From an uncultured Actinomycetota bacterium (GTDB taxonomy: Bacteria > Actinomycetota > Actinomycetes > Prado026): a stretch of 64,000 nt of DNA. The translations under genes were made by a program, and so were the position numbers. Location: positions 1,457,269 to 1,521,268 of the forward strand of contig CAVQCJ010000002.1 in the NCBI GenBank assembly GCA_963711005.1, written 5' to 3'. A model generated the notes under the pieces. The model was given only the letters and a program-made list of their open reading frames with translations, had not been told where the DNA came from and made no database searches. Below, one piece after another: positions 7,749-59,457 of the stretch. Numbering within the stretch: position 1 is the stretch's first letter; every line of letters starts with the position of its first letter.

Positions 7749-8366
7749 GTGACAGGGGCCGAGGTCGGAGTCGGGCCGTGGACCGGGCCATGGCCGCAGG
7801 ACCCGCGGTACGACGCAGAGCTGCTGGCCGGGGGCGACCGCCGCAACGTCGTCGACCGCTACCGGTACTGGACCGTCGAGGCGATCGTTGCCGACCTCGA
7901 CAGCCGGCGGCACCCGTTCCACGTGGCGATCGAGAACTGGTCCCACGACTTCAACATCGGGTCCGTCGTGCGCACTGCCAACGCCTTCAACGCGGCCGGG
8001 GTGCACATCGTCGGGCGGCGGCGGTGGAACCGGCGCGGGGCCATGGTGACCGACCGGTACGTGCACGTGCACCACCACCCCGACGTCGCCGCGCTCGCCG
8101 CCTGGTCCGCCGCCGCCGGCCTGCCGCTGATCGGGATCGACAACCTGCCGGGGTCGGTGCCGCTGGAGACGTACGACCTGCCGGCTGCCTGCGTCCTGCT
8201 GCTCGGGCAGGAGGGACCCGGGCTCTCGGGGCCGGCCCGCTCGGCCTGCGTCGACGTGCTGTCGGTGGCCCAGTACGGGTCTACCCGGTCGGTCAACGCC
8301 GGGGCCGCGGCGGCCGTGGCCATGCATGCGTGGGTCCGCCGGCACGCCTTCGACCAGCAGCCGTGA
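7749..8366 (+). CDS. TrmH/SpoU family RNA 2'-O-methyltransferase
   Basis: SpoU-type motifs (NIGSVVRTANAFNAAGVHIVG; LLLGQEGPGLS; SVNAGAAAAVAMHAW). Putative GTG start at 7749; the long upstream in-frame ORF is non-coding-looking. Confidence 0.7.
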   Translation: MTGAEVGVGPWTGPWPQDPRYDAELLAGGDRRNVVDRYRYWTVEAIVADLDSRRHPFHVAIENWSHDFNIGSVVRTANAFNAAGVHIVGRRRWNRRGAMVTDRYVHVHHHPDVAALAAWSAAAGLPLIGIDNLPGSVPLETYDLPAACVLLLGQEGPGLSGPARSACVDVLSVAQYGSTRSVNAGAAAAVAMHAWVRRHAFDQQP

Positions 8367-8469
8367 CCCGGCGCGGCTGACGCAGGGGTCATTGGTCCCT
8401 TGCCGGGCGGTGCCGGGCCGATGCGAGGATGGGCGCGCCCCGTACGCACCAGCCGAGGAGCCACCCGCC

Positions 8470-9501
8470 ATGCCCATCGCCTCTCCCGAGGTCTACCGCG
8501 AGATGCTCGACCGCGCGAAGGCGGGCGCCTTCGCCTACCCGGCGATCAACTGCACGTCCTCGCAGTCCGTCGTGGCCGCCCTGCGCGGGTTCGCGGAGGC
8601 GCGCAGCGACGGCATCGTCCAGTTCTCCTGGGGCGGGGCGGAGTTCGCGTCCGGGCAGATGGTCAAGGACATGGTGACGGGGGCGGTGGCGCTGGCGGAG
8701 TTCGCCCACGTCGTGGCCGCCAAGTACGACGTGAACATCGCCCTGCACACCGACCACTGCCCGGCGAACAAGCTCGACGGCTTCATGCGGCCGCTGGTGC
8801 AGCTCGGGCTGGACCGGGCCGCGGCCGGCAAGGAGCCGCTGTTCCAGTCGCACATGTGGGACGGGTCGGCAGTCAGCCTCAAGGAGAACCTGGACATCGC
8901 CGACGAGCTGCTCGACCAGTGCTCGCGGGCGAGGATCGTCATGGAGCTCGAGATCGGGGTCGTCGGCGGCGAGGAGGACGGGGTCGAGGCCAAGCACGAC
9001 GCCAAGCTCTACTCGACGCCCGAGGATGCGATCGCGACGGCCGAGCGGCTGGGGCTCGGCGAGCGCGGGCGGTACCTGCTCGCCGCGACGTTCGGCAACG
9101 TGCACGGCGTCTACAAGCCGGGCAACGTCGTGCTGCGCCCGTCGATCCTCAAGGACCTGCAGGACGCGGTGGCCGGGCGCTTCGACCTGCCGGCGGGTTC
9201 GAAGCCGTTCGACCTGGTCTTCCACGGCGGCTCGGGGTCGCTGCTGTCGGAGATCCGCGAGGCGCTGGACTACGGCGTCGTCAAGATGAACATCGACACG
9301 GACACGCAGTACGCCTTCACCCGCCCGATCGCGGACCACATGCTGGTGAACTACGCCGGGGTGCTGAAGGTCGACGGCGAGGTCGGCAACAAGAAGCTGT
9401 ACGACCCCCGCGCGTACGGCAAGGCCGCCGAGGCCGGGATGGCCGCCCGCATCACCGAGGCCTGCGAAGACCTCCGCTCCGTCGGCACCCGCCTCAGCTA
9501 A
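8470..9501 (+). CDS. fbaA: Class II fructose-bisphosphate aldolase
   Basis: Conserved N-terminus (EMLDRAKAGAFAYPAINCTSSQ) and the HTDHC metal site. Confidence 0.9.
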   Translation: MPIASPEVYREMLDRAKAGAFAYPAINCTSSQSVVAALRGFAEARSDGIVQFSWGGAEFASGQMVKDMVTGAVALAEFAHVVAAKYDVNIALHTDHCPANKLDGFMRPLVQLGLDRAAAGKEPLFQSHMWDGSAVSLKENLDIADELLDQCSRARIVMELEIGVVGGEEDGVEAKHDAKLYSTPEDAIATAERLGLGERGRYLLAATFGNVHGVYKPGNVVLRPSILKDLQDAVAGRFDLPAGSKPFDLVFHGGSGSLLSEIREALDYGVVKMNIDTDTQYAFTRPIADHMLVNYAGVLKVDGEVGNKKLYDPRAYGKAAEAGMAARITEACEDLRSVGTRLS

Positions 9502-9636
9502 CCCTCCCGCGCCTTGCCCGCCAGGATGCTGTGATCTGGTCGTTGGGAGCCTTCCCAACCAGCAGTACGGCGGGTACAGCAAGCTGGGGTGTGGACGAAC
9601 GAGCCGGGCTGGTCGTGAACCGCCGATGATGCGGCG

Positions 9637-10134
9637 GTGCTGGAGGAGTTGGCAGGTCAGCAGGGCGGCGCATTCACGACCGTGCAGGCGCGGCAGTGCG
9701 GGTACTCGGACGCGGCGATCAGGTATCGGGCCGACCGCGGTCACTGGCTCCGACTCCGTCGGGGCGTGTTCGCGTCGGCGCGGCTGGTCAAGGGGCTGGA
9801 CCCAGGGGAGCGGTTCCGGCTCGTGCTGTGGGCGGCGGTGCTCGCGCTGGGCGCCGGGGCCGTGGTCAGTCATCGGTCGGCCGCAAGGATCCACGGCATG
9901 TCCGACTACGGCCACGACCCTGGTCATCTCGTGCTCACCAGGGCTGCCCCGACGTCGCCCGACGGCTACGACGGTCTCGTCGTCCAGCGGGCTGCACTTC
10001 GCGCCGCGGAAGTCACGAAGCACGAGGGACTGCCCATCACGACGATCGCAAAACGGCGTGGGAGCGTATCCATGGCTCGATTCGCAGCGTTGTGCAAGGT
10101 GAAGCGGGAGTCGTTGAGGGAGGAGGATGGGGGC
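9637..10134 (+). pseudogene. Truncated AbiEi_4-like (type IV TA antitoxin-like / DUF559-family N-terminal domain) gene remnant, reading in frame into the DUF3151 gene
   Basis: Residues 1-100 (GAFTTVQARQCGYSDAAIRYRADRGHWLRLRRGVFA...AVVSHRSAARIHGM) match the AbiEi_4 N-terminal domain. The expected C-terminal DUF559 part is absent. The frame runs on through a repeat copy into MTHQ..., the DUF3151 start. Confidence 0.45.
10033..10106 (+). repeat. Degenerate 4th copy (D) of the 72-bp terminal-inverted-repeat intergenic element
   Basis: The right inverted repeat GGTGAAGCG is intact at 10098-10106. The core TGGGAGCGTATCCATGG and the GCAGCGTTGTGCAA module resemble copies A-C. The left inverted repeat is degenerate (CCCATCACG). 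Confidence 0.4.
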
Positions 10135-12477
<2,343 letters not shown>

Positions 12478-13929: not shown

Positions 13930-15195
13930 GTGGGCGGCGTGACGACACCGGACCGCACCGTCCTGCGCCCCGAGCTGCTCCTCGACGTCGTGTCCGGCGA
14001 GCTGCTGCTCGGGCGTGCCGTCGTCGTCGAGGGCGAGCGGGTCGTCGCCGTGATCGCCGCCGCGGACGCGCCGGCAGAGGGTCCGGCGCTGCTCGACCTC
14101 GCCGGGCACACCCTGCTGCCGGGTCTGACCGACTGCCACGCGCACCTGGTCGGCGAGCCCGACTCCGGGCACAGCTACGCCGAGCTGCTCACGCGCAGCC
14201 CGGCGCAGGAGGCCTTGTCCGGGGTCCGCAACGCCAGCGACACCTTGCTGGCCGGGTTCACGTCGGTCCGCGACGTCGGGACCTTCCGCGCGTTCGTCGA
14301 CGTCGCGCTGCGGGACGCGATCGACGCGGGCTGGGTGCAGGGCCCGAGGATGCGCGTGGCCGGTGCGTACATCACCAGCTCCGGCGGCGGTGGCGACATC
14401 ACCGGGCTCGCCCAGGACGTGGACGCGGTGGTGCCCAGGGACCTGCGCGCCGGTGTCGCCGACTCTGTCGACGAGGTCCGTCGGGCCGTGCGCCGCGTCC
14501 TGCACGGTGGCGCCGACCTGGTGAAGGTCATCGCCACGGGTGCGGTGATGACGGCCGGCGGGGTCCCGGGAGCCCCGGAGTTCACCGAGGCGGAGATCAG
14601 GGCCGCGGTCGAGGAGTCCGCCTTCTACGGCGCGCACGTCGCGGCGCACGCGCACGGTGCCGAGGGGATCAAGCGCGCGGTCCGGGCCGGGGTTCGCTCG
14701 GTCGAGCACGGCTCGCTCATGGACGACGAGGCGATCGAGCTGATGGCCGCGGCCGGCACCTACCTGGTCGCGGACGTGTACTGCGGCGACTACATCGCCG
14801 AGCGCGGCAGCGCCGAGGGCTGGGACGCCGACGTGCTGCGCAAGAACGACGAGACGACGCTCGCGCAGCGCGAGGGCTTCGCGAAGTGCGTCAAGGCCGG
14901 AGTCCGTATCGCGTTCGGCACCGACAGCGGGATCTACCCGCACGGGCTGAACGCGCGCCAGTTCGCGTACCAGGTGCGTTGGGGCCAGACGCCGGCGGAG
15001 GCCATCCGTTCGGCGACGCTCACCGCGGCCGAGCTGCTGGACCGCGCGGACGAGCTCGGCACGGTCGCGCCCGGCCGCTTCGCCGACCTCGTCGCGGTCG
15101 CCGGCAACCCGCTGGAGGACATCCGCCTGCTCGAGGACATCCCGTTCGTGATGAAGGGCGGCCGGGTCGTCAAGGGCCTGACCCCGCGATCTTGA
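13930..15195 (+). CDS. Amidohydrolase family metal-dependent hydrolase
   Basis: Metal-binding motifs DCHAHL, AHAHGAEG and FGTDSG. GTG start. The last codons and the stop lie inside an inverted-repeat element. Confidence 0.8.
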   Translation: MGGVTTPDRTVLRPELLLDVVSGELLLGRAVVVEGERVVAVIAAADAPAEGPALLDLAGHTLLPGLTDCHAHLVGEPDSGHSYAELLTRSPAQEALSGVRNASDTLLAGFTSVRDVGTFRAFVDVALRDAIDAGWVQGPRMRVAGAYITSSGGGGDITGLAQDVDAVVPRDLRAGVADSVDEVRRAVRRVLHGGADLVKVIATGAVMTAGGVPGAPEFTEAEIRAAVEESAFYGAHVAAHAHGAEGIKRAVRAGVRSVEHGSLMDDEAIELMAAAGTYLVADVYCGDYIAERGSAEGWDADVLRKNDETTLAQREGFAKCVKAGVRIAFGTDSGIYPHGLNARQFAYQVRWGQTPAEAIRSATLTAAELLDRADELGTVAPGRFADLVAVAGNPLEDIRLLEDIPFVMKGGRVVKGLTPRS

Positions 15196-15248
15196 GAGAA
15201 GCAGGGCCCCGTACGGCGTGTCGCCTCTGTATCTCTCAAGATCGCGGG
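15183..15248. repeat. Inverted-repeat element, family 2, copy 1: perfect 18-bp arms CCCCGCGATCTTGAGAGA / TCTCTCAAGATCGCGGGG separated by 30 nt
   Basis: Read directly from the sequence. It spans the amidohydrolase stop codon (15193-15195) and ends 15 nt before the methyltransferase start. The loop contains GGCGTGTCGC. Confidence 0.6.
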
Positions 15249-15263
15249 GGAAAGGATGCGGGG

Positions 15264-24514: not shown

Positions 24515-25958
24515 ATGGACGGCGTGACCGCCAAGCCCGCGATCCCGGACGTGCTCGCCGCCCGCTACGCCTCGCCGCAGATGGCCGAGCTCTGGTCGCC
24601 GGAGAAGAAGGTCGTGCTGGAGCGGCGGCTGTGGGTCGCGGTGCTGCGGGCCCAGCGCGACCTGGGCGTCCCGGTCCCCGACGGCGCGGTCGAGGCCTAC
24701 GAGGCGGTCGTCGACAAGGTCGACCTGGACTCGATCGCGGCCCGCGAGCGGGTCACCCGCCACGACGTGAAGGCTCGGATCGAAGAGTTCAGCGCGCTCG
24801 CCGGCCACGAGCAGGTCCACCGGGGCATGACGTCGCGGGACCTGACCGAGAACGTCGAGCAGCTGCAGGTCCGGGACGGGCTGTTGATCCTGCGCGACCG
24901 GACGGTAGCGACGCTGGTCCGGCTGGCCGCGCGCGCCGTGCAGTACGACCACCTCGTGATGGCCGGCCGTACGCACAACGTCCCGGCACAGGCGACGACG
25001 CTGGGCAAACGGTTCGCGTCGGCCGCCGACGAGCTGCTGGTCGGCGTACGAGCGGCTGACCGACCTGCTCGCCCGTTACCCGCTGCGGGGGATCAAGGGC
25101 CCGGTCGGGACCGCGCAGGACCAGCTGGACCTGCTCGACGGCGACCCGCAGCGGCTGGCCGAGCTCGAGCGTCGGGTCGCCGCGCACCTGGGCTTCACCC
25201 GGGTGCTGACCAGCGTCGGCCAGGTCTACCCGCGCTCGCTGGACCTCGACGTGGTCTCGGCGCTCGTGCAGCTCGCGGCCGGACCGTCCTCGCTGGCGAC
25301 GTCGATCCGGCTGATGGCGGGCAGCGAGACGGTCACCGAAGGGTTCGTGCCCGGCCAGGTGGGGTCGTCCGCGATGCCGCACAAGATGAACACGCGTTCG
25401 TGCGAGCGGGTGAACGGTCTGGCGGTGGTGCTGAGGGGCTACCTCTCGATGGTCGGCGAGCTGGCCGGCGACCAGTGGAACGAGGGTGACGTGTCCTGCT
25501 CGGTGGTCCGCCGGGTCGCACTGCCGGGCGCCTTCTTCGCGGCGGACGGGCTGTTCGAGACGTTCATGACCGTGCTGGACGAGTTCGGGGCCTTCCCGGC
25601 GGTCGTCGAGCGCGAGCTGGCGCGCTACCTGCCGTTCCTGGCGACCACGAAGGTGCTGACGGCAGCGGTGCGCAAGGGCGTCGGACGCGAGGCCGCGCAC
25701 GAGGCGATCAAGGAGCACGCGGTCGCCGTCGCGCTGCGGATGCGCGAGCAGGGCGCCGACCGGAACGACCTGTTCGACCGGCTGGCCGCCGACCCGCGGC
25801 TCGGGCTGTCGGCCGGCGACCTGGCGGCGCTGGTCGCCGACCCCGCAGGTTTCACCGGCGCCGCGTCCGCGCAGGTCGCCGCGGTGGTGGCCCGGGTCGA
25901 GGCGGCGGCCGCCGCGCACCCCGAGGCTGCGGCCTACTCCCCCGCGCCGATCCTCTGA
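24515..25958 (+). CDS. purB: Adenylosuccinate lyase, interrupted by an apparent +1 frameshift near 25049
   Basis: The N-terminal part (IPDVLAARYASPQMAELWSPEKKVVLERRLW...GRTHNVPAQATTLGKRFASAADELLVGV) and the C-terminal part (YPLRGIKGPVGTAQDQLDLL...SVGQVYPRSLD...SSAMPHKMNTRSCER...) are in different frames. Deleting one nucleotide at GTA-C-GAG restores ...LLVGVERLTDLLARYPLRG. Confidence 0.8.
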
Positions 25959-28807: not shown

Positions 28808-29053
28808 GTGGCCCGCGTCGTCGTCGACGTCATGCTCAAGCCGGAGATCCTCGACCCGCAGGGCCAGGCCGTGCAGAACGCCCTGCGCCGGCTGGGGTTC
28901 GAGTCCGTGACCGACGTCCGGCAGGGCAAGCGGTTCGAGATCGAGGTCGACGGCCCGGCCGACGACGCGCTGCGCGCCCGCGCCGAGGAGATGGCCACCA
29001 CGCTGCTGGCCAACCAGGTGATCGAGGACTTCGCGGTACGGGTGCAGGCCTGA
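28808..29053 (+). CDS. purS: Phosphoribosylformylglycinamidine synthase subunit PurS
   Basis: 81-aa protein with the PurS signature ([23 protein letters not shown]...[10 protein letters not shown]). GTG start. Confidence 0.85.
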
Positions 29054-29736
29054 TGGGCGCCCGGGTCGGCGTGGTCACCTTCCCCGGGTCCCTGGACGAC
29101 GGCGACGCCCGGCGGGCCGTCACGGCGGCCGGCGGCGATGCGGTGGCGCTGTGGCACAAGGACCGCAGCCTGCACGGCGTCGACGCGGTGGTGCTGCCCG
29201 GCGGCTTCTCGTACGGCGACTACCTGCGCTGCGGGGCGATCTCGCGCTTCGCCCCGGTGATGGAGGCGCTCGTCGACGCGGCCCGTGACGGCCTGCCGGT
29301 GCTCGGTATCTGCAACGGCTTCCAGATCCTGTGCGAGTCGCACCTGCTGCCGGGCGCGCTCACCCGCAACGACCACCTGCACTTCGTCTGCCGGGACCAG
29401 CGGCTGCGCATCGAGTCGACCACGACGGCGTGGACCTCCGCGTACGCATTGGGCCAGGAGATCGTGGTGCCGCTGAAGAACGGCGAGGGCGGGTTCGTCG
29501 CGGACGAGCGCACGCTGGACGAGCTGGAGGCCGAGGGGCGGGTGGTGGCGCGCTACCTGGACGTCAACCCGAACGGCTCGAGGCGGGACATCGCCGGCAT
29601 CAGCAACGCCGCGGGCAACGTCGTCGGCCTGATGCCGCACCCCGAGCACGCGATCGAGCCGCTCACCGGCCCCACCAGCGACGGCCTACCCTTCTTCACC
29701 TCCGTCCTCGAGTCCCTGGTCGGCGCCACCCCATGA
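29053..29736 (+). CDS. purQ: Phosphoribosylformylglycinamidine synthase I (glutaminase subunit)
   Basis: Glutamine amidotransferase motifs [20 protein letters not shown] and MPHPEH. Confidence 0.9.
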
Positions 29737-29737
29737 C

Positions 29738-29809
29738 CGCTTCACCTTCCAGATCGCTGCCCCCCAGCCCTTGGGAGGGTTCCCATGCAACGTTTCGCGA
29801 GGTGAAGCG
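29738..29809 (+). repeat. 72-bp terminal-inverted-repeat intergenic element, copy A (CGCTTCACC...TGGGAGGGTTCCCA-TGCAACGTTTCGCGA-GGTGAAGCG)
   Basis: Read directly from the sequence. It fills the purQ-purL intergenic space exactly, starting 2 nt after the purQ stop and ending 3 nt before the purL GTG. It contains the mini-ORF ATGCAACGTTTCGCGAGGTGA preceded by GGGAGGG. Confidence 0.7.
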
Positions 29810-29812
29810 GGC

Positions 29813-32076
<2,264 letters not shown>

Positions 32077-36929: not shown

Positions 36930-36975
36930 CGTGTCAGACCGAGGACGGGCCGTAGCCCAGCCTCGGTCTGACACG
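36930..36975 (+). promoter_or_regulatory. Intra-operon hairpin: 15-bp perfect inverted repeat CGTGTCAGACCGAGG / CCTCGGTCTGACACG with a 16-nt loop, between the binding-protein and permease genes
   Basis: Read directly from the sequence; it may act as a partial terminator or mRNA stabiliser. Confidence 0.4.
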
Positions 36976-44866: not shown

Positions 44867-45076
44867 GTGACCACCCGTACCCCCGACGCCGAGCCGCTGC
44901 TGACCCCGTCCGAGGTCGCGGCGATGTTCCGCGTCGACCCGAAGACGGTCACCCGCTGGGCCAAGGCCGGCAAGCTGACCTCGATCCGCACGCTCGGCGG
45001 GCACCGCCGCTACCGCGAGGCCGAGGTCCGGGAGCTGCTCGGCCAGATACCGCAGCAGCGCGACTCGGGGGACTAG
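44867..45076 (+). CDS. bldC: BldC-like MerR-family small DNA-binding protein
   Basis: 69 aa, nearly identical to the BldC consensus (DAEPLLTPSEVAAMFRVDPKTVTRWAKAGKLTSIRTLGGHRRYREAEVRELL). GTG start with an AGGAGG RBS. Confidence 0.8.
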   Translation: MTTRTPDAEPLLTPSEVAAMFRVDPKTVTRWAKAGKLTSIRTLGGHRRYREAEVRELLGQIPQQRDSGD

Positions 45077-45146
45077 ACCCGGGGCGGGAGCGCCGCCCGG
45101 GCCGTCCGACAAGGCGGCCCGGACGGCTGCTGCCCCACCCCTCCGC

Positions 45147-45218
45147 GGCTTCACCCCGCGGACTGCTGTGTGGGAGGGCTCCCACCGGCGAACTTGCAGC
45201 AACCTACGAGGTGAAGCG
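45147..45218 (+). repeat. 72-bp terminal-inverted-repeat intergenic element, copy B
   Basis: GGCTTCACC-CCGCGGACTGCTGTG-TGGGAGGGCTCCCA-...GCAGCAACCTACGA-GGTGAAGCG. It lies 70 nt downstream of bldC in the same sense and 12 nt from the stop of the convergent esterase gene. Confidence 0.65.
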
Positions 45219-45230
45219 GGGCCGCGGGGG

Positions 45231-46208
45231 TCAGGTGACGCGGGCGGCGAGCCAGTCGAGCTGCTCGGCGTGCTGGAACGCCGCCCCACCCTCGTGCTCG
45301 TTGTACGGGTAGACGGTGATCGACTTCTCGAGGCCGCCGTAGGCGTTGAAGGCGGCGAACACCGTCGACGGCGGGCACACCTTGTCCATCAGCGCCACCG
45401 AGAACAGCGCCGGCGCCGACGCCAGCCGTCCGAGCACCGCGCCGTCGAAGTACGCCAGCGTCCCGAAGACCTGCTCCACCTGGTCGCGGTGCGCCTTCAG
45501 GTAACCGACGATCTCGCCGTACGGGTCCTCGTCGGTGATCTCGGTCGCCCGCCGGAAGTGGCACAGGAACGGCACGTCCGGCAGCACCCCGACCAGCCCG
45601 CTGGCCAGCGCGCCCACGGCGATGCTGATCCCGCCGCCCTGGCTGCCGCCGGTCACGGCGACCCGGTCCGGGTCCACCGCCGGGTGCGTCCGGACCGCGT
45701 CGACGGCGCGGACCGCGTCGGTGAACACCCGCCGGTAGTAGTAGGCGTCCGGGTCGAGCACCCCCCGGGTCATGAACCCGGGGTACGAAGGCCCGCCGGT
45801 GCCGCCGCTGTCGGCCGTGTCGCCCGCCGTCGAGCCGGTCCCCTGCCCACGGGTGTCGACGACCAGGCAGGCGTACCCCGCCAGCGTCCACACGCTGACC
45901 TCGTGCGCCAGCCCCCGCCCGCCGGTGTAGCCGAGGTAGCGCACCACCGTCGGCAGCCGCCCGCCGCTGCCCGCCGGGACGTGCAGCCAACCCCGAACCG
46001 GGTCGGCCCCGAAGCCGGGGAACGTGACGTCGTAAGCCTCGACCAGCTTCAGCCGGGTGCGGACCGCGGCGAACACCGGCTCGGACCCGGCACCGACCGC
46101 GCGGGCCTGGGTGAGCGTGCGCGCCCAGAACTCCTCGAGGTCCGGCGGTGCCGGCGGACGCGGGTCGTAGTGCCGCAGCTCGTCCAGCGAAAGGTCGAAC
46201 AGCGCCAT
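45231..46208 (-). CDS. Acetylxylan esterase / cephalosporin-C deacetylase family (AXE1)
   Basis: The motifs GGSQGGG (nucleophile elbow), the RGQG oxyanion motif, and the overall CE7 layout. Confidence 0.8.
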   Translation of the reverse strand: MALFDLSLDELRHYDPRPPAPPDLEEFWARTLTQARAVGAGSEPVFAAVRTRLKLVEAYDVTFPGFGADPVRGWLHVPAGSGGRLPTVVRYLGYTGGRGLAHEVSVWTLAGYACLVVDTRGQGTGSTAGDTADSGGTGGPSYPGFMTRGVLDPDAYYYRRVFTDAVRAVDAVRTHPAVDPDRVAVTGGSQGGGISIAVGALASGLVGVLPDVPFLCHFRRATEITDEDPYGEIVGYLKAHRDQVEQVFGTLAYFDGAVLGRLASAPALFSVALMDKVCPPSTVFAAFNAYGGLEKSITVYPYNEHEGGAAFQHAEQLDWLAARVT

Positions 46209-47211: not shown

Positions 47212-47308
47212 GGGCAGATCCTTCCGGGCGCGGGGACCGGGGCGCCAGCCGGGGTCCGTGGCCGACCCGCTCTTGCCGTCGGGGGGTTCCGGGCGTTCGG
47301 ATGGTGCC

Positions 47309-48082
47309 ATGACCATCCGAACCGCGCCCTGGCCGGCCGGTGTCCCTTGCTGGATCGACCTGCAGGTCCCCGACGTCCCCGCGGCCCAGGAGTTCTACGG
47401 TGCCGTCCTCGGCTGGACCTTCGCCCCGCCCGCCCAGGAGTTCGGCGGGTACGTGGTCGCCGAGTCCCACGGCGCCATGGCCGCGGGGATCGGCCCCGCG
47501 CAGGCAGGCGCCGCGATCGCCTGGACCTTGTACCTGGCCAGCGAGGACGCCGATGCGACCGCGAAGTCCGTCGAGGTCGCCGGCGGCACCGTGGTGCTGC
47601 CACCGGGCGACGTCGGCCCGCTCGGGCGGATGTTCCTCGCCGCCGACCCGACCGGTGCGGTCTTCGGCGTCTGGCAGGCCGGGGACAACCACGGCGCGGG
47701 CGTGGTCAACGAGCCCGGCGGGCTGTCCTGGGAGGACCTGCGCTCGCACGATGCCGACGCGGCGCGCGCGTTCTACCGCGACGTCTTCGGCTACGACTAC
47801 GCACCCGTCGAGGGCGCCGGACCCGACTACACGACGTTCTCCCTCGCCGGCGAGGGCGCCCCGCGCGGCGGGATCGGCGGGATGTTCGGCGCCGAGGACC
47901 GGCCCTCGCACTGGCTCGCCTACTTCGGCGTGCAGGACGCCGCGGCGGCCACCGCGGCGGCCGAGCGGCTGGGCGGCTCGGTCGCGCTGCCCGGTTTCGA
48001 GACCCCGTTCGGCGTGATGGCCGGGATCGTCGACCCCTGGGGCAGCTCGTTCTGGGTGGTCCAGCAGTCCGGCCAGGCCTAG
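47309..48082 (+). CDS. VOC (glyoxalase/bleomycin resistance) family protein, two-domain
   Basis: The motif pattern (WIDLQVPD...F.PTGAVFGVWQ) appears twice, consistent with a tandem VOC fold. Confidence 0.7.
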   Translation: MTIRTAPWPAGVPCWIDLQVPDVPAAQEFYGAVLGWTFAPPAQEFGGYVVAESHGAMAAGIGPAQAGAAIAWTLYLASEDADATAKSVEVAGGTVVLPPGDVGPLGRMFLAADPTGAVFGVWQAGDNHGAGVVNEPGGLSWEDLRSHDADAARAFYRDVFGYDYAPVEGAGPDYTTFSLAGEGAPRGGIGGMFGAEDRPSHWLAYFGVQDAAAATAAAERLGGSVALPGFETPFGVMAGIVDPWGSSFWVVQQSGQA

Positions 48083-48106
48083 CCGGTCCGGGCGGCGTGG
48101 AGCTGC

Positions 48107-48604
48107 TCAGGAGCTGGCAGTCCGGGCTTGCTGGTCCAGGGCCTTGTCGACGGCGTCCATGTCGTAGCCCGGTCGCACCAGGTCGAAGCCGACCGCGCGG
48201 ATCTCTGCCCGGGTGCGGTCGCCGATGGTCTGGAAGAACACGTCGACCTGTTCGGCCTGGTAGCCCTTGGCTGTGCCGGAGAACCGGCCCTCCCCGACGT
48301 GGGTCGCCTTGGCCAGCGGGCGTCGCAGGTAGAGCCAGATGAGCACCGAGAAGGCCGCCGCGACGACGAGCGTGCTGAGGCTGTACAGCAGCGTTGCCCA
48401 CCGACTCACGGGTGCCCCCGGAGTGTCGCCGATGCCGGCGTCATGTCCGGTGACGGTGCTCCAGAGTCCCTGGGCCGTCGCCCACCAGGCCACGGCCGCG
48501 ATGATCGGAGGGATCGCGCTCATGTTCGACGCGCCCCACAGGCTGGGGCGTGGGCGGTCCCGCCAGCGCAGCTTGCCGCCATTGCGGCCTCCGGTAGCGC
48601 TCAC
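48107..48604 (-). CDS. DivIVA-domain membrane protein
   Basis: TM helices are followed by a DivIVA N-terminal-like motif (GYQAEQVDVFFQTIGDRTRAEIRAVGFDLVRPGYDMDAVDKALD). The start overlaps the stop of the upstream ECF sigma gene (GTGA). Confidence 0.55.
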   Translation of the reverse strand: MSATGGRNGGKLRWRDRPRPSLWGASNMSAIPPIIAAVAWWATAQGLWSTVTGHDAGIGDTPGAPVSRWATLLYSLSTLVVAAAFSVLIWLYLRRPLAKATHVGEGRFSGTAKGYQAEQVDVFFQTIGDRTRAEIRAVGFDLVRPGYDMDAVDKALDQQARTASS

Positions 48605-49869
48605 GCTTCCCTCGCCGCGTCAGCGGCCCGGCGGCGCGACAGCTCGCGCTCCCGTTCGTTGCGGGTCATCGCGGCCGCGCGCTCGAACTCGACCTGCGCC
48701 TCCCCTGGCCGGCCCAGCTTCATCAGCAGGTCGCCGCGCACGCTGGGCAGCAGGTGGTACCCGCGCAGGGCCGGCTCGTCCGTCAGCGCGTCGACCAGGT
48801 CGAGGGCGGGCTGCGGGCCGTACGCCATCGACACCGCCACGGCGCGGTTGAGCTCCACCACCGGCGACGGCGTCACCCTGGCGAGCGCCGCGTACAGCGC
48901 GGCGATGCGCGGCCAGTCCGTGTCGTCCGCCCGGAAGGCGCGCGCGTGGCAGGCGGCGATCTCGGCCTGCAGGACGTACGGCCCGCCGGATCCGTCCAGC
49001 TCCTCGGCCCTGGCCAGCGCGGCCAGGCCCCGGTTGATCAGCAGCCGGTCCCAGCCGGTCCGGTCCTGGTCGAGCAGCAGCACCGGCTCACCCTCCGGTC
49101 CCCGGCGCGCGCCGACACGGGACGCCTGGATCTCCATCAGCGCCACCAGGCCGTGCACCTCCGGCTCGTCCGGGGTCAGCTGCGCGAGCAGCCGGCCCAG
49201 CCGCAGCGCGTCCCCGCACAGCTCCGGCCGCATCCAGTCGGCACCGGACGTCGCCGAGTAGCCCTCGTTGAAGATCAGGTAGACCACCTCGAGCACGGAG
49301 GCGAGCCGCTCGGGCCGGTCGGCAGCGGCCGGGACCTCGAACGGGACGTCGGCTGTCGCCAGCGTCTTCTTCGCCCGCACGATGCGTTGGGCGATCGTCG
49401 GCTCGGGGACCAGGTACGCACGGGCGATCTCGGTGGTGGTCAGGCCGCCGAGCAGCCGCAGCGTCAGCGCGACCCGCGCCGGGACGCCCAGCACCGGGTG
49501 GCAGGCGGTGAACACCAGCCGCAGCAGGTCGTCGTCGATGTCGTCGGAGAACGCGCGGTCGAAGTCCGGGGTCACCGCCGCGCCGCCGTCGGCCAGCTCG
49601 CGCCCGATCTCCGCGTACCTGGTCCGCAGCCGCTCGTGGCGCCGGAACAGGTCGACCGCTCGCCGCCGCGCCACGGTCATCAGCCAGCCGCGCGCGTTGC
49701 GCGGGACCCCTTCGACCGGCCACTGCTCGAGCGCGGCGACGAGAGCGTCCTGGGCGAGCTCCTCGGCCAGACCCAGGTCACCGGTGTAACGGGTGAGCCC
49801 GGCGACCAACCGCGGGTACTCCAGCCGGAACACGGTCTCGATCGCCGCGCGGCTCTGCGACCCCGTCAC
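48601..49869 (-). CDS. ECF-type sigma-70 factor with a long C-terminal DUF6596/TPR-like extension (YciI-associated class)
   Basis: Sigma region 2 (LAEELAQDALVAALEQW), region 4 (GLTTTEIARAYLVPEPTIAQRIVRAKKTL), and a ~230-aa C-terminal extension. It follows a yciI gene. Confidence 0.8.
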   Translation of the reverse strand: MTGSQSRAAIETVFRLEYPRLVAGLTRYTGDLGLAEELAQDALVAALEQWPVEGVPRNARGWLMTVARRRAVDLFRRHERLRTRYAEIGRELADGGAAVTPDFDRAFSDDIDDDLLRLVFTACHPVLGVPARVALTLRLLGGLTTTEIARAYLVPEPTIAQRIVRAKKTLATADVPFEVPAAADRPERLASVLEVVYLIFNEGYSATSGADWMRPELCGDALRLGRLLAQLTPDEPEVHGLVALMEIQASRVGARRGPEGEPVLLLDQDRTGWDRLLINRGLAALARAEELDGSGGPYVLQAEIAACHARAFRADDTDWPRIAALYAALARVTPSPVVELNRAVAVSMAYGPQPALDLVDALTDEPALRGYHLLPSVRGDLLMKLGRPGEAQVEFERAAAMTRNERERELSRRRAADAAREA

Positions 49870-49896
49870 CTGCCGATCTCACCACAGCGCGAGCAC

Positions 49897-49968
49897 CGCT
49901 TCACCTCGTGGAACGTTGCATGGGAGGGCTTCCACGCCCGCGTCAGCGACGTCCCACGGGGTGAAGCG
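49897..49968 (-). repeat. 72-bp terminal-inverted-repeat intergenic element, copy C (reverse orientation on the genome; sense with respect to the yciI-sigma operon)
   Basis: CGCTTCACC-TCGTGGAACGTTGCA-TGGGAGGGCTTCCA-...-GGTGAAGCG. The reverse complement aligns with copy A, including ...CCCATGCAACGTT(C)CACGAGGTGAAGCG. It starts 14 nt after the yciI stop and ends 27 nt before the sigma start. Confidence 0.65.
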
Positions 49969-49982
49969 CGGGACGGAGCGGA

Positions 49983-50318
49983 TCAGAAGACCTGGCGGAT
50001 GCGGGACTCGCCCTCGCCGACGATGCTCAGGAAGCGCTTGGTCCACTCGACCGCCTCGTCCTTGTCCCGGCACTCGCAAAGCGCCCAGCCGCCGATCAGC
50101 TCCTTGGCCTCGGCGAACGGGCCGTCGGTCACGGTGAACTCCCCGCCGTGCAGCGTCACCTTCGCACCCATCGCGGTCGGCGCGACGCCACCGGTGGCCA
50201 GCAGCACGCCGGCTTTCGTGGCCTCCTCGACGAACGCCCCCATCTCGGCGTTCAGGTCGGGCGTCGGCTCGGGGATCGGCACGGACTCGTCGCCCAGGGT
50301 GTACATCAGGAATCGCAT
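49983..50318 (-). CDS. YciI family protein
   Basis: 111 aa with the YciI-like pattern (LLATGGVAPTAMGAKVTLHGGEFTVTDGPFAEAKELIGGWALCECRDKDEAVEW). Confidence 0.8.
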   Translation of the reverse strand: MRFLMYTLGDESVPIPEPTPDLNAEMGAFVEEATKAGVLLATGGVAPTAMGAKVTLHGGEFTVTDGPFAEAKELIGGWALCECRDKDEAVEWTKRFLSIVGEGESRIRQVF

Positions 50319-50444
50319 GGCTGGCTCCTTCGATCTGGTCGTGCCGGCGCTTCCGGCTCACCCATGGGTCGATCGGCACGCGGCCGGATCGACACCGCGC
50401 GCAGGGCAGTCTCGAACCGCGGTGGTGAGCCGGGATCGGGTCGG

Positions 50445-59405: not shown

Positions 59406-59457
59406 CGTCGTTGCATACGGATCGGGGGTCCCGACCCCCGATCCGTATGCAACGACG
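59406..59457. terminator. Bidirectional terminator-like perfect palindrome (25-bp arms CGTCGTTGCATACGGATCGGGGGTC / GACCCCCGATCCGTATGCAACGACG) between convergent genes
   Basis: Read directly from the sequence. It sits 2 nt after the hydrolase stop and 4 nt before the glgA-like stop. It is GC-rich with no U-tract. Confidence 0.6.

Follow-up and report, generated by a model that had tools for sequence, protein, structure and literature searches.

A probable REP/REPIN-like family of fixed-length palindromic repeats in an uncultured high-GC soil actinomycete lineage

The window analysed here, a 64-kb stretch of contig CAVQCJ010000002.1 (73% G+C) from an uncultured bacterium of the Actinomycetota, contains several copies of a short palindromic repeat located between its genes. 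Three of them, each 72 nt long and bounded by terminal inverted repeats, had been reported in a first-pass annotation together with a degenerate fourth, and the coordinates and exact length of these three were borne out. With a covariance model (R1) built from 15 members and with Pfam-identified genes, five copies were recognised, all intergenic; copy counts here and below are based on these 64 kb and on short contigs. The copies and their cores are as follows, with strands given in the family reference orientation.

9510-9581, minus strand: copy E, 72 nt, 33.4 bits (E 1e-6), ends eroded (TGCTGTACC / GGCAAGGCG), core and inner stem intact
10059-10106, plus strand: copy D, 48 nt remaining, consisting of the core TGGGAGCGTATCCA and the right arm, 12.8 bits
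29738-29809, minus strand: copy A, full 72 nt, 72.7 bits, fold of -30 to -33 kcal/mol
45147-45218, plus strand: copy B, full 72 nt, 65.4 bits, between the convergent bldC and AXE1 esterase genes
49897-49968, plus strand: copy C, full 72 nt, 78.2 bits, between yciI and an extracytoplasmic function (ECF) sigma factor gene
45171-45184: 14-nt palindromic core, with copy B as the example (TGGGAGGGCTCCCA), 1 mismatch to the CebR/CelR operator box
9544-9557, 10059-10072, 29772-29785 and 49921-49934: the equivalent cores of the other copies

The flanking genes listed below were identified with Pfam, as was purA, for which no coordinates are given.

8326-9501: fba
from 9637: AbiEi_4 fragment
10135-10554: DUF3151 gene
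29053-29736: purQ
44867-45076: bldC, stop at 45076
45231-46208, minus strand: AXE1 esterase gene, stop codon at 45231-45233
48601-49869, minus strand: ECF sigma factor gene, start at 49869
49983-50318, minus strand: yciI, stop at 49983

Copy A fills the gap between purQ and purL, as first described, beginning 1 nt past the purQ stop and ending 3 nt before the purL GTG. The position of copy C between yciI and the ECF sigma gene was likewise confirmed, and copy E lies 8 nt past the fba stop. Copy B is indeed found 3' of bldC, 70 nt past its stop; it had not been recognised that it sits between convergent genes, 12 nt past the AXE1 stop, with a polarity relative to bldC opposite to that of A and C. 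Copy D was correctly located upstream of the DUF3151 gene (28 nt from the start codon) and is not a degenerate full copy, the 48 nt at 10059-10106 alone being element-derived. The termini of A, B and C read (C/G)GCTTCACC ... GGTGAAGCG, and the ends of the family as a whole CGCTTCACC and GGTGAAGCG. The terminal 9-mer occurs 6 times in the window, compared with 0.75 expected, and the paired pattern GCTTCACC-N40-70-GGTGAAGC was found 3 times in the window and 0 times in 100 shuffles. An affiliation of the host with Nocardioidaceae, proposed earlier, was not supported; the nearest named relatives are Streptomycetaceae-like for PurQ (83-84%) and Jatrophihabitantaceae for the AbiEi-like protein (33-42%).

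Further members were obtained from metagenomes, which were scanned with the pattern GCTTCACC-N14-16-TGGGA-N32-36-GGTGAAGC. Of the 23 loci returned (denoted by L numbers), 13 hold clear members, 12 of them distinct since L137 duplicates L127. All of these are exactly 72 nt long and lie on soil-metagenome contigs with 68-75% G+C. The covariance model recovered two copies missed by the pattern, namely copy E in the window and one at L127 188-259 (59.5 bits). The existence of a dispersed intergenic family with terminal inverted repeats, as first proposed, is thus upheld by these members and by the fifth copy in the window. A scan of the genome collection with CGCTTCACC-N46-62-GGTGAAGCG gave at least 120 chance matches in unrelated taxa, with no family member among the matches listed. 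One chance match and no family member was found in IMG/VR, and no relevant match among the PLSDB plasmids. The elements are also not represented in Rfam: only three tRNAs in the window reached the gathering threshold, no family matched at a relaxed E-value threshold, and at the elements only generic miRNA-precursor hairpins were matched, far below threshold. Nothing matching the elements was found in the literature searched on actinobacterial REP (repetitive extragenic palindromic), REPIN (paired REP) or MITE (miniature inverted-repeat transposable element) families.

At L132 1582-1653, a 72-nt perfect hairpin with the same ends and a TGGGAG core (GGCTTCACCTAGCGGGATACGGGATTGGGAG...GGTGAAGCA) scored 40 bits. 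The contig comes from another metagenome, has a much lower G+C content and carries an AT-rich flank, and the hairpin may be either a distant relative from another organism or a match by chance.

The reference geometry of the family is 5' CGCTTCACC, a 13-nt stem arm, 1-2 nt, TGGGAGSGCTCCCA, a linker of ~12 nt, the complementary arm, and GGTGAAGCG 3'. Each copy is composed of two inverted arms of 22 nt, in which the outer 9 bp are conserved and the inner 13 bp are variable but complementary, and of a 28-nt asymmetric apex that starts with a TGGGAGCGCTCCCA-like palindrome. The quasi-palindromic core described earlier is present, and the conserved 28 nt at the 3' side of A and C were also recovered, with 26/28 nt common to A on the plus strand and C on the minus strand. 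The TGCAACGTT segment, which had been regarded as a module of its own, is merely inner-stem sequence of A and C, and other members show free covariation there. Long hairpins are formed by copies A, B and C whichever strand is folded (-30 to -50 kcal/mol, z -2.5 to -7.3), of which that of copy C is the most stable (-50.5 kcal/mol, z -7.3) and the stem of copy A the weakest. With its 22 bp, the stem corresponds to about two turns of the helix. Across the 18 copies the palindrome often continues into the flanks, with TTC before the left end and GAA after the right end (TTCCGCTTCACC with flanks), a C-rich 5' side and a G-rich 3' side.

Covariation was tested on 17 full copies over a 20-pair stem comprising its outer and inner parts. 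Pairing was observed in 90.9% of the stem cells, and fell to 35-47% in a control in which the 3' partner was slid by 1-3 columns. Changes on both sides were found at 10 pairs, involving 33 cells as compared with 16.2 cells in shuffled alignments, and none of 500 shuffles reached 33. RNAalifold likewise reported significant covariation of the stem. As the inner 13 bp were not constrained by the search pattern, the covariation there speaks independently for maintenance of the hairpin, and the long stem suggested by the first reading is confirmed as a 22-bp structure with compensatory changes. Most of the non-Watson-Crick cells are transition intermediates, 22 of the G:U type and 22 of the A:C type. 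Selection on the RNA of one particular strand was rejected on this ratio of 22:22, which favours neither strand. These results demonstrate that the hairpin is under selection and that this selection is strand-symmetric.

The placement of the family was examined at 14 independent loci, of which 13 follow a stop codon, mostly within 20 nt, in agreement with the earlier statement that the elements abut gene ends. Six loci lie between convergent genes (B/L124/L150, L128, L135, L140, L143/L145 and probably L141), usually 5-20 nt from both stops, seven between co-directional genes (A, C, E, D, L125, L131 and L136) and one in a divergent region (L139). At the co-directional loci the polarity of the apex is split 4:3 (A, C, E and L136 versus D, L125 and L131), and at the orthologous bldC-AXE1 site in L124 the apex is flipped relative to the window. 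The proposed rule of a constant sense orientation is therefore not borne out: A and C obey it, B does so only when assigned to AXE1 rather than bldC, D is opposite, and the family is mixed.

This bears on the suggestion that the elements resemble mycobacterial interspersed repetitive units (MIRUs), as polar, always sense-oriented elements with a translated 6-codon mini-open reading frame (ORF) coupling the flanking genes. MIRUs are minisatellite-type repeats that insert at start codons and whose internal ORF is coupled, at -4 nt, to the gene downstream (PMC12548453; PMC3635867). The elements share with them an intergenic location, an actinobacterial host and, for some copies in operons, close contact with both a stop and a start codon, as seen for copy A between purQ and purL. 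A and C also have the same polarity relative to transcription and both carry the mini-ORF as described (ATG CAA CGT TYC RCG AGG TGA). Its ATG is present in only 4/18 copies, however, and there is no conserved internal ORF. In copy A the stop of the mini-ORF (29803-29805) does not overlap the purL GTG (29813), and no element ORF overlaps a downstream start codon, unlike in MIRUs (PMC12548453). Moreover, MIRUs are direct, tandemly repeated units of fixed polarity, whereas Tandem Repeats Finder gave no array overlapping any of the five window copies, each site being a single palindromic unit of either polarity. Together with the 4:3 orientation and the six loci between convergent genes, this makes a MIRU-like nature of the elements very improbable.

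Canonical intrinsic terminators combine a G+C-rich hairpin with a U-tract behind it. In the elements the hairpin is present, with no T-run, and no terminator-like site with a U-tract was found in the region 44.5-50.5 kb. Several other hairpins were noted in similar positions. The ~60 nt that directly follow the bldC stop (45077-45135) include a hairpin (GGGCCGTCCG...CGGCCCGGACGGC). Hardly any variation is seen in this segment among the window, L124, L150 and L151; L152 and L153 differ more, and the sequence beyond it is highly variable. The segment has no Rfam match and may be a conserved bldC terminator or 3' untranslated region element. A perfect palindrome with 25-bp arms (CGTCGTTGCATACGGATCGGGGGTC and its reverse complement) is located at 59406-59457 between convergent alpha/beta-hydrolase and glycogen-synthase-like genes. 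It lies 3-5 nt from both stops and scores 21 bits with R1, and thus represents a different type of hairpin in the same niche. At 15182-15249, a 68-nt hairpin with CCCCGCGATCTTGAGAG... arms overlaps the stop of an amidohydrolase gene, and a 69-nt hairpin with similar ends (CCGCGACGATCTTGACC...GGTCAAGATCGTCGCGG) fills the purQ-purL gap at L123 10684-10752; these two may represent a third repeat family. Finally, a 46-nt hairpin with 21-nt arms (90% complementary) is located at 36930-36975, in an ABC transporter operon, where it separates the gene for the sugar-binding protein from that for the first permease. The hairpin is conserved in L151 (86% identity), weak model matches occur at the same position in L152 and L153, and it looks like a classical intercistronic stabiliser hairpin.

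The purine genes around copy A contain apparent frameshifts. Compared with the L121 protein, purL (29813-32076) shows two frame changes: the first 20 codons are read from GTG 29813, codons 21-640 in a second frame from 29874, and the tail from 31744 in a third, the first change following an extra base in TACGCGCGAG near 29870. A frame change relative to the L121 protein is also found near 25044-25102 in purB (24515-25955). Several frameshifts in essential genes suggest an indel-prone assembly rather than pseudogenes. All copies keep the family length despite these frameshifts.

The core of the elements is similar to a known operator. The sequence TGGGAGCGCTCCCA is the consensus of the CebR/CelR operator in Streptomyces and other Actinobacteria (PMC5332605), and the majority base at all 14 core positions over 18 copies spells exactly this consensus. 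Single copies have 1-3 mismatches to the box, a range that includes predicted Streptomyces scabies sites (PMC5332605), and every match in the window with at most 2 mismatches falls inside an element. The elements might thus be vehicles or clusters of sites for a LacI-family repressor of the CebR/CelR type, in which the 14-nt apex palindrome would be the working part and serve, as double-stranded DNA, as a roadblock, a titration sink or a regulatory site. Several observations render this improbable. A perfect box is present in none of the copies, the window copies have a central GG or CC in place of CG, and conservation is much lower in the 3' than in the 5' half-site, which is unexpected for a symmetric dimer site. 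In addition, the hairpin repeat that contains the core is found at the 3' ends of housekeeping genes (pur, fba, eno, glgB), and not at promoters of cellulose or cello-oligosaccharide utilisation genes; there is no LacI-family gene in the window, and a sister family of 72-nt elements, described below, lacks the core altogether. We regard the identity with the CebR box as a lead, not a function.

Comparison with relatives provided information on the history of individual sites. For the fba-DUF3151 region, an orthologous locus with ~75% identity is available in L127. Its gene order is fba, a full element at 1252-1323 that is orthologous to copy E, an intact 316-aa AbiEi_4/AbiEi_1/restriction endonuclease-like gene, a second full element in inverted orientation (188-259), and DUF3151, with the stop codon of the AbiEi-like gene lying inside the second element. 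In the window this gene is truncated (9637-10058), and what remains of it forms an ORF (9637-10554) that continues in frame across copy D into DUF3151. Comparison with L127 shows that copy D lost its left arm in the window through a deletion that also took away the 3' part of the AbiEi-like gene. The possibility that this gene is a cargo or transposase of the elements was considered and rejected: homologs with 48-61% identity occur at the same fba-DUF3151 position in relatives, including L148 and the contig carrying P0122, which indicates a resident gene, and in L148 a hairpin of the sister family is present on one side of the gene only.

A graded series of relatives was collected by a protein search with AXE1. 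L150 is ~91% identical to the window over 35-59 kb, and L151/L121 ~85%. At the B site, the copy is kept in L150 in the same orientation (66/72 identical), while in L151 internal deletion of a family copy has left only a 21-nt hairpin, CCGCTTC-CCGAGGT-GAAGCGG. The apex-flipped copy of L124 at this site has stems that diverged mostly by transitions, L152 holds a different 72-nt hairpin, belonging to the sister family, and the site is empty in L153, where 19 nt separate the conserved bldC tail from the AXE1 stop. At the C site, L150 has a 72-nt copy at 8824-8895 (62/72 identical) whose terminal stem carries a compensatory change (CGCTTTACC/GGTAAAGCG) and which was kept despite deletion of yciI on one side and of the sigma gene and ORF165 on the other. 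In L151 (7609-7681) the copy has a perfect compensated 14-bp inner stem and a degraded core and left end. At the A site, the copy is absent from L121, the closest relative covering it, in which a 37-nt spacer with a short unrelated hairpin is found; L122 and L123 carry other long hairpins there.

Gene content around copy C also differs between the relatives. Compared with window 47271-50424, the corresponding segment of L150 (8812-8938) lacks yciI, the ECF sigma gene, ORF165 and a spacer of ~790 nt, and a ~26-nt remnant of the 5' end of the sigma gene directly abuts copy C. L151 lacks ORF165 and the spacer (window 47234-48613). The region is a hotspot of gene-content change.

The sister family (family 2, the elements above being family 1) comprises hairpins in L122, L148, L149 and L152, with exactly 72 nt between conserved ends in 3/4 of them (L122, L148 and L152). 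Its ends, CACTTYGCC...GGCAARGTG, differ from those of family 1 by compensated transitions; its inner stem is conserved, and it has no TGGGAG core. L122 and L152, which come from the same metagenome, have family 2 at the A and B sites, where the window has family 1, and neither family was seen in contigs of the other. At shared sites the positions of family-1 and family-2 elements are 10-14 nt apart and the flanks differ. In copy E, a core of the family-1 type is joined to an end resembling family 2. Within family 1, L125 and L140, two different loci of one metagenome, are 85% identical in the variable part, as compared with a family mean of 59%. At fixed sites the structure is thus conserved over long periods, which is what a functional element would show, and the duplication, loss, erosion, flipping and replacement of copies are what a repeat family would show.

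One explanation is that the hairpins never moved, having arisen or been retained site by site as cis-acting RNA or DNA structures and being alike through their fit to one trans-acting factor with drifting specificity. Such a factor might be an RNase III-like enzyme, an RNA-binding or a DNA-binding protein, and the CGCTTCACC ends of family 1 and the CACTTYGCC ends of family 2 would be its dialects. The exact length of 72 nt in both families is in line with this, as are the occupation of the same sites by family 1 in the window and by family 2 in the L122/L152 metagenome and L148, the mixed character of copy E, the divergence of orthologs by compensatory changes and not by decay, and the retention of copy C in L150 after both flanking genes had been lost. 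It is implausible, though, that the same 9-nt ends, 14-nt core and spacing would be found at unrelated loci without copying. The high identity of the paralogs L125 and L140 and the existence of empty and eroded sites also speak for movement, and the 10-14 nt shifts with different flanks fit separate insertions better than drift in place. We therefore consider an origin without mobility unlikely.

Instead, we think it probable that the elements form an undescribed REP/REPIN-like interspersed family of palindromic repeats with a fixed length of 72 nt, which belongs to an uncultured high-GC soil actinomycete lineage and places a symmetric hairpin at RNA 3' ends or between cistrons. Like REPs and REPINs, they are short, non-coding, extragenic and multi-copy, with two inverted arms and a spacer (22 and 28 nt, respectively) that fold into one long hairpin. 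REPs also share their location at gene 3' ends and in the gaps between convergent genes, and their long persistence largely by vertical descent in lineage-specific sequence families; termination and mRNA stabilisation are among the roles proposed for REPs (PMC3337134, PMC3733652, RAREFAN preprint). The elements differ in that their arms are not themselves conserved small palindromes, in their strict length, and in their occurrence in Actinomycetota, the REP survey paper naming no actinobacterial genera. Most REP superfamilies are defined by a GTAG or CGTC tetranucleotide tag at one end of the palindrome (PMC3733652). Neither tag is present at the foot of the stem, where the ends are CGCTTCACC/GGTGAAGCG, and no gene was found in the window for the REP-associated tyrosine transposase (RAYT), the Y1 transposase that mobilises REPs and whose gene the repeats usually flank; the elements are therefore described as working like REP/REPIN and not as members of these families.

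Several further points weigh against this reading, in addition to the lacking tag. No transposase, RAYT or plausible mobilising gene is present in the window, and no direct target-site duplication flanks any of the 18 copies. With ~60% identity in the variable part, copies within one genome are much further apart than is usual for active REPIN or MITE populations. The search pattern itself accounts in part for the lack of variation in the 9-nt ends and in TGGGA among the metagenome members; in the six copies free of this bias (A-E and L127 188-259), TGGGA is kept in 6/6 and CCA in 6/6, and the ends are mostly intact. The roles in termination, stabilisation and processing are ones that we infer only, and strong termination within the purSQL operon would be detrimental, although the stem of copy A is the weakest. 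Finally, a strict length of 72 nt and a conserved core are not needed for a plain terminator and point to a binding partner.

Two other known systems were compared. Bacterial MITEs such as Correia/NEMIS resemble the elements in their terminal inverted repeats, small size, intergenic dispersal, presence/absence polymorphism between relatives and potential protein-binding sites. In the elements, by contrast, no target-site duplication was seen, and no parent insertion sequence with their ends was found in the window or in the loci retrieved. Their repeats also extend into a covarying 22-bp stem that differs between copies of the same genome, which a single end-recognising transposase does not explain.

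In Neisseria and Haemophilus, paired DNA uptake sequences (DUS) and uptake signal sequences (USS) form terminators, as conserved inverted pairs of 9-10-mers after genes, with dialects between related lineages. The elements are analogous in having inverted 9-mer pairs in terminator-like hairpins after genes and lineage dialects, and they have in addition an inner stem of 13 bp that covaries, an apex of 28 nt and a fixed total of 72 nt. The analogy is one of sequence architecture.

For the REP/REPIN-like family, we envisage that copies were dispersed into the few places between genes that tolerate them, for the most part no more than 20 nt from a stop codon. Some would then have persisted by vertical descent under selection for the hairpin, and others would have been eroded, lost, flipped or replaced by the sister family. 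A copy would be transcribed within the 3' end of the neighbouring gene or genes and might act as an orientation-independent RNA hairpin, either as a bidirectional terminator without a U-tract, as a structure that protects the 3' end or is processed by an RNase III-type enzyme, or both. A special case is presented by copy A, whose right arm carries GAGGTGA on the plus strand (29799-29805), 7 nt upstream of the purL GTG. The stem probably sequesters this Shine-Dalgarno-like sequence, and because GAGGTGA is paired in it, initiation at purL would depend on ribosomes that finish purQ and terminate 1 nt upstream of the hairpin.

More speculatively, the hairpins could be cis partners of a co-evolving trans-acting protein that gives rise to genome-specific dialects, namely family 1 with its CebR-box-like core and family 2, both of 72 nt and in the same niches. 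They could then represent the first REPIN-RAYT-like domesticated transposase system in Actinomycetota, or repeats that distribute LacI/CebR-type operators to gene 3' ends as protein-dependent roadblock terminators. We consider this proposal quite unlikely as it stands, and note that the agreement of the core with the CebR/CelR consensus offers a direct hypothesis for a candidate binding protein.

No REP/REPIN-type family of Actinomycetota was found described in the literature searched, and the phylum is poorly covered. As a practical matter, the covariance model flags likely transcript ends and operon-internal processing sites, and guards against spurious ORF extension, such as the sigma gene call in L151 that runs over the element. 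With their strict length, covarying stems and dialects, the elements provide a tractable case for studying how repeats are dispersed, maintained and exploited in high-GC genomes without canonical U-tract terminators.

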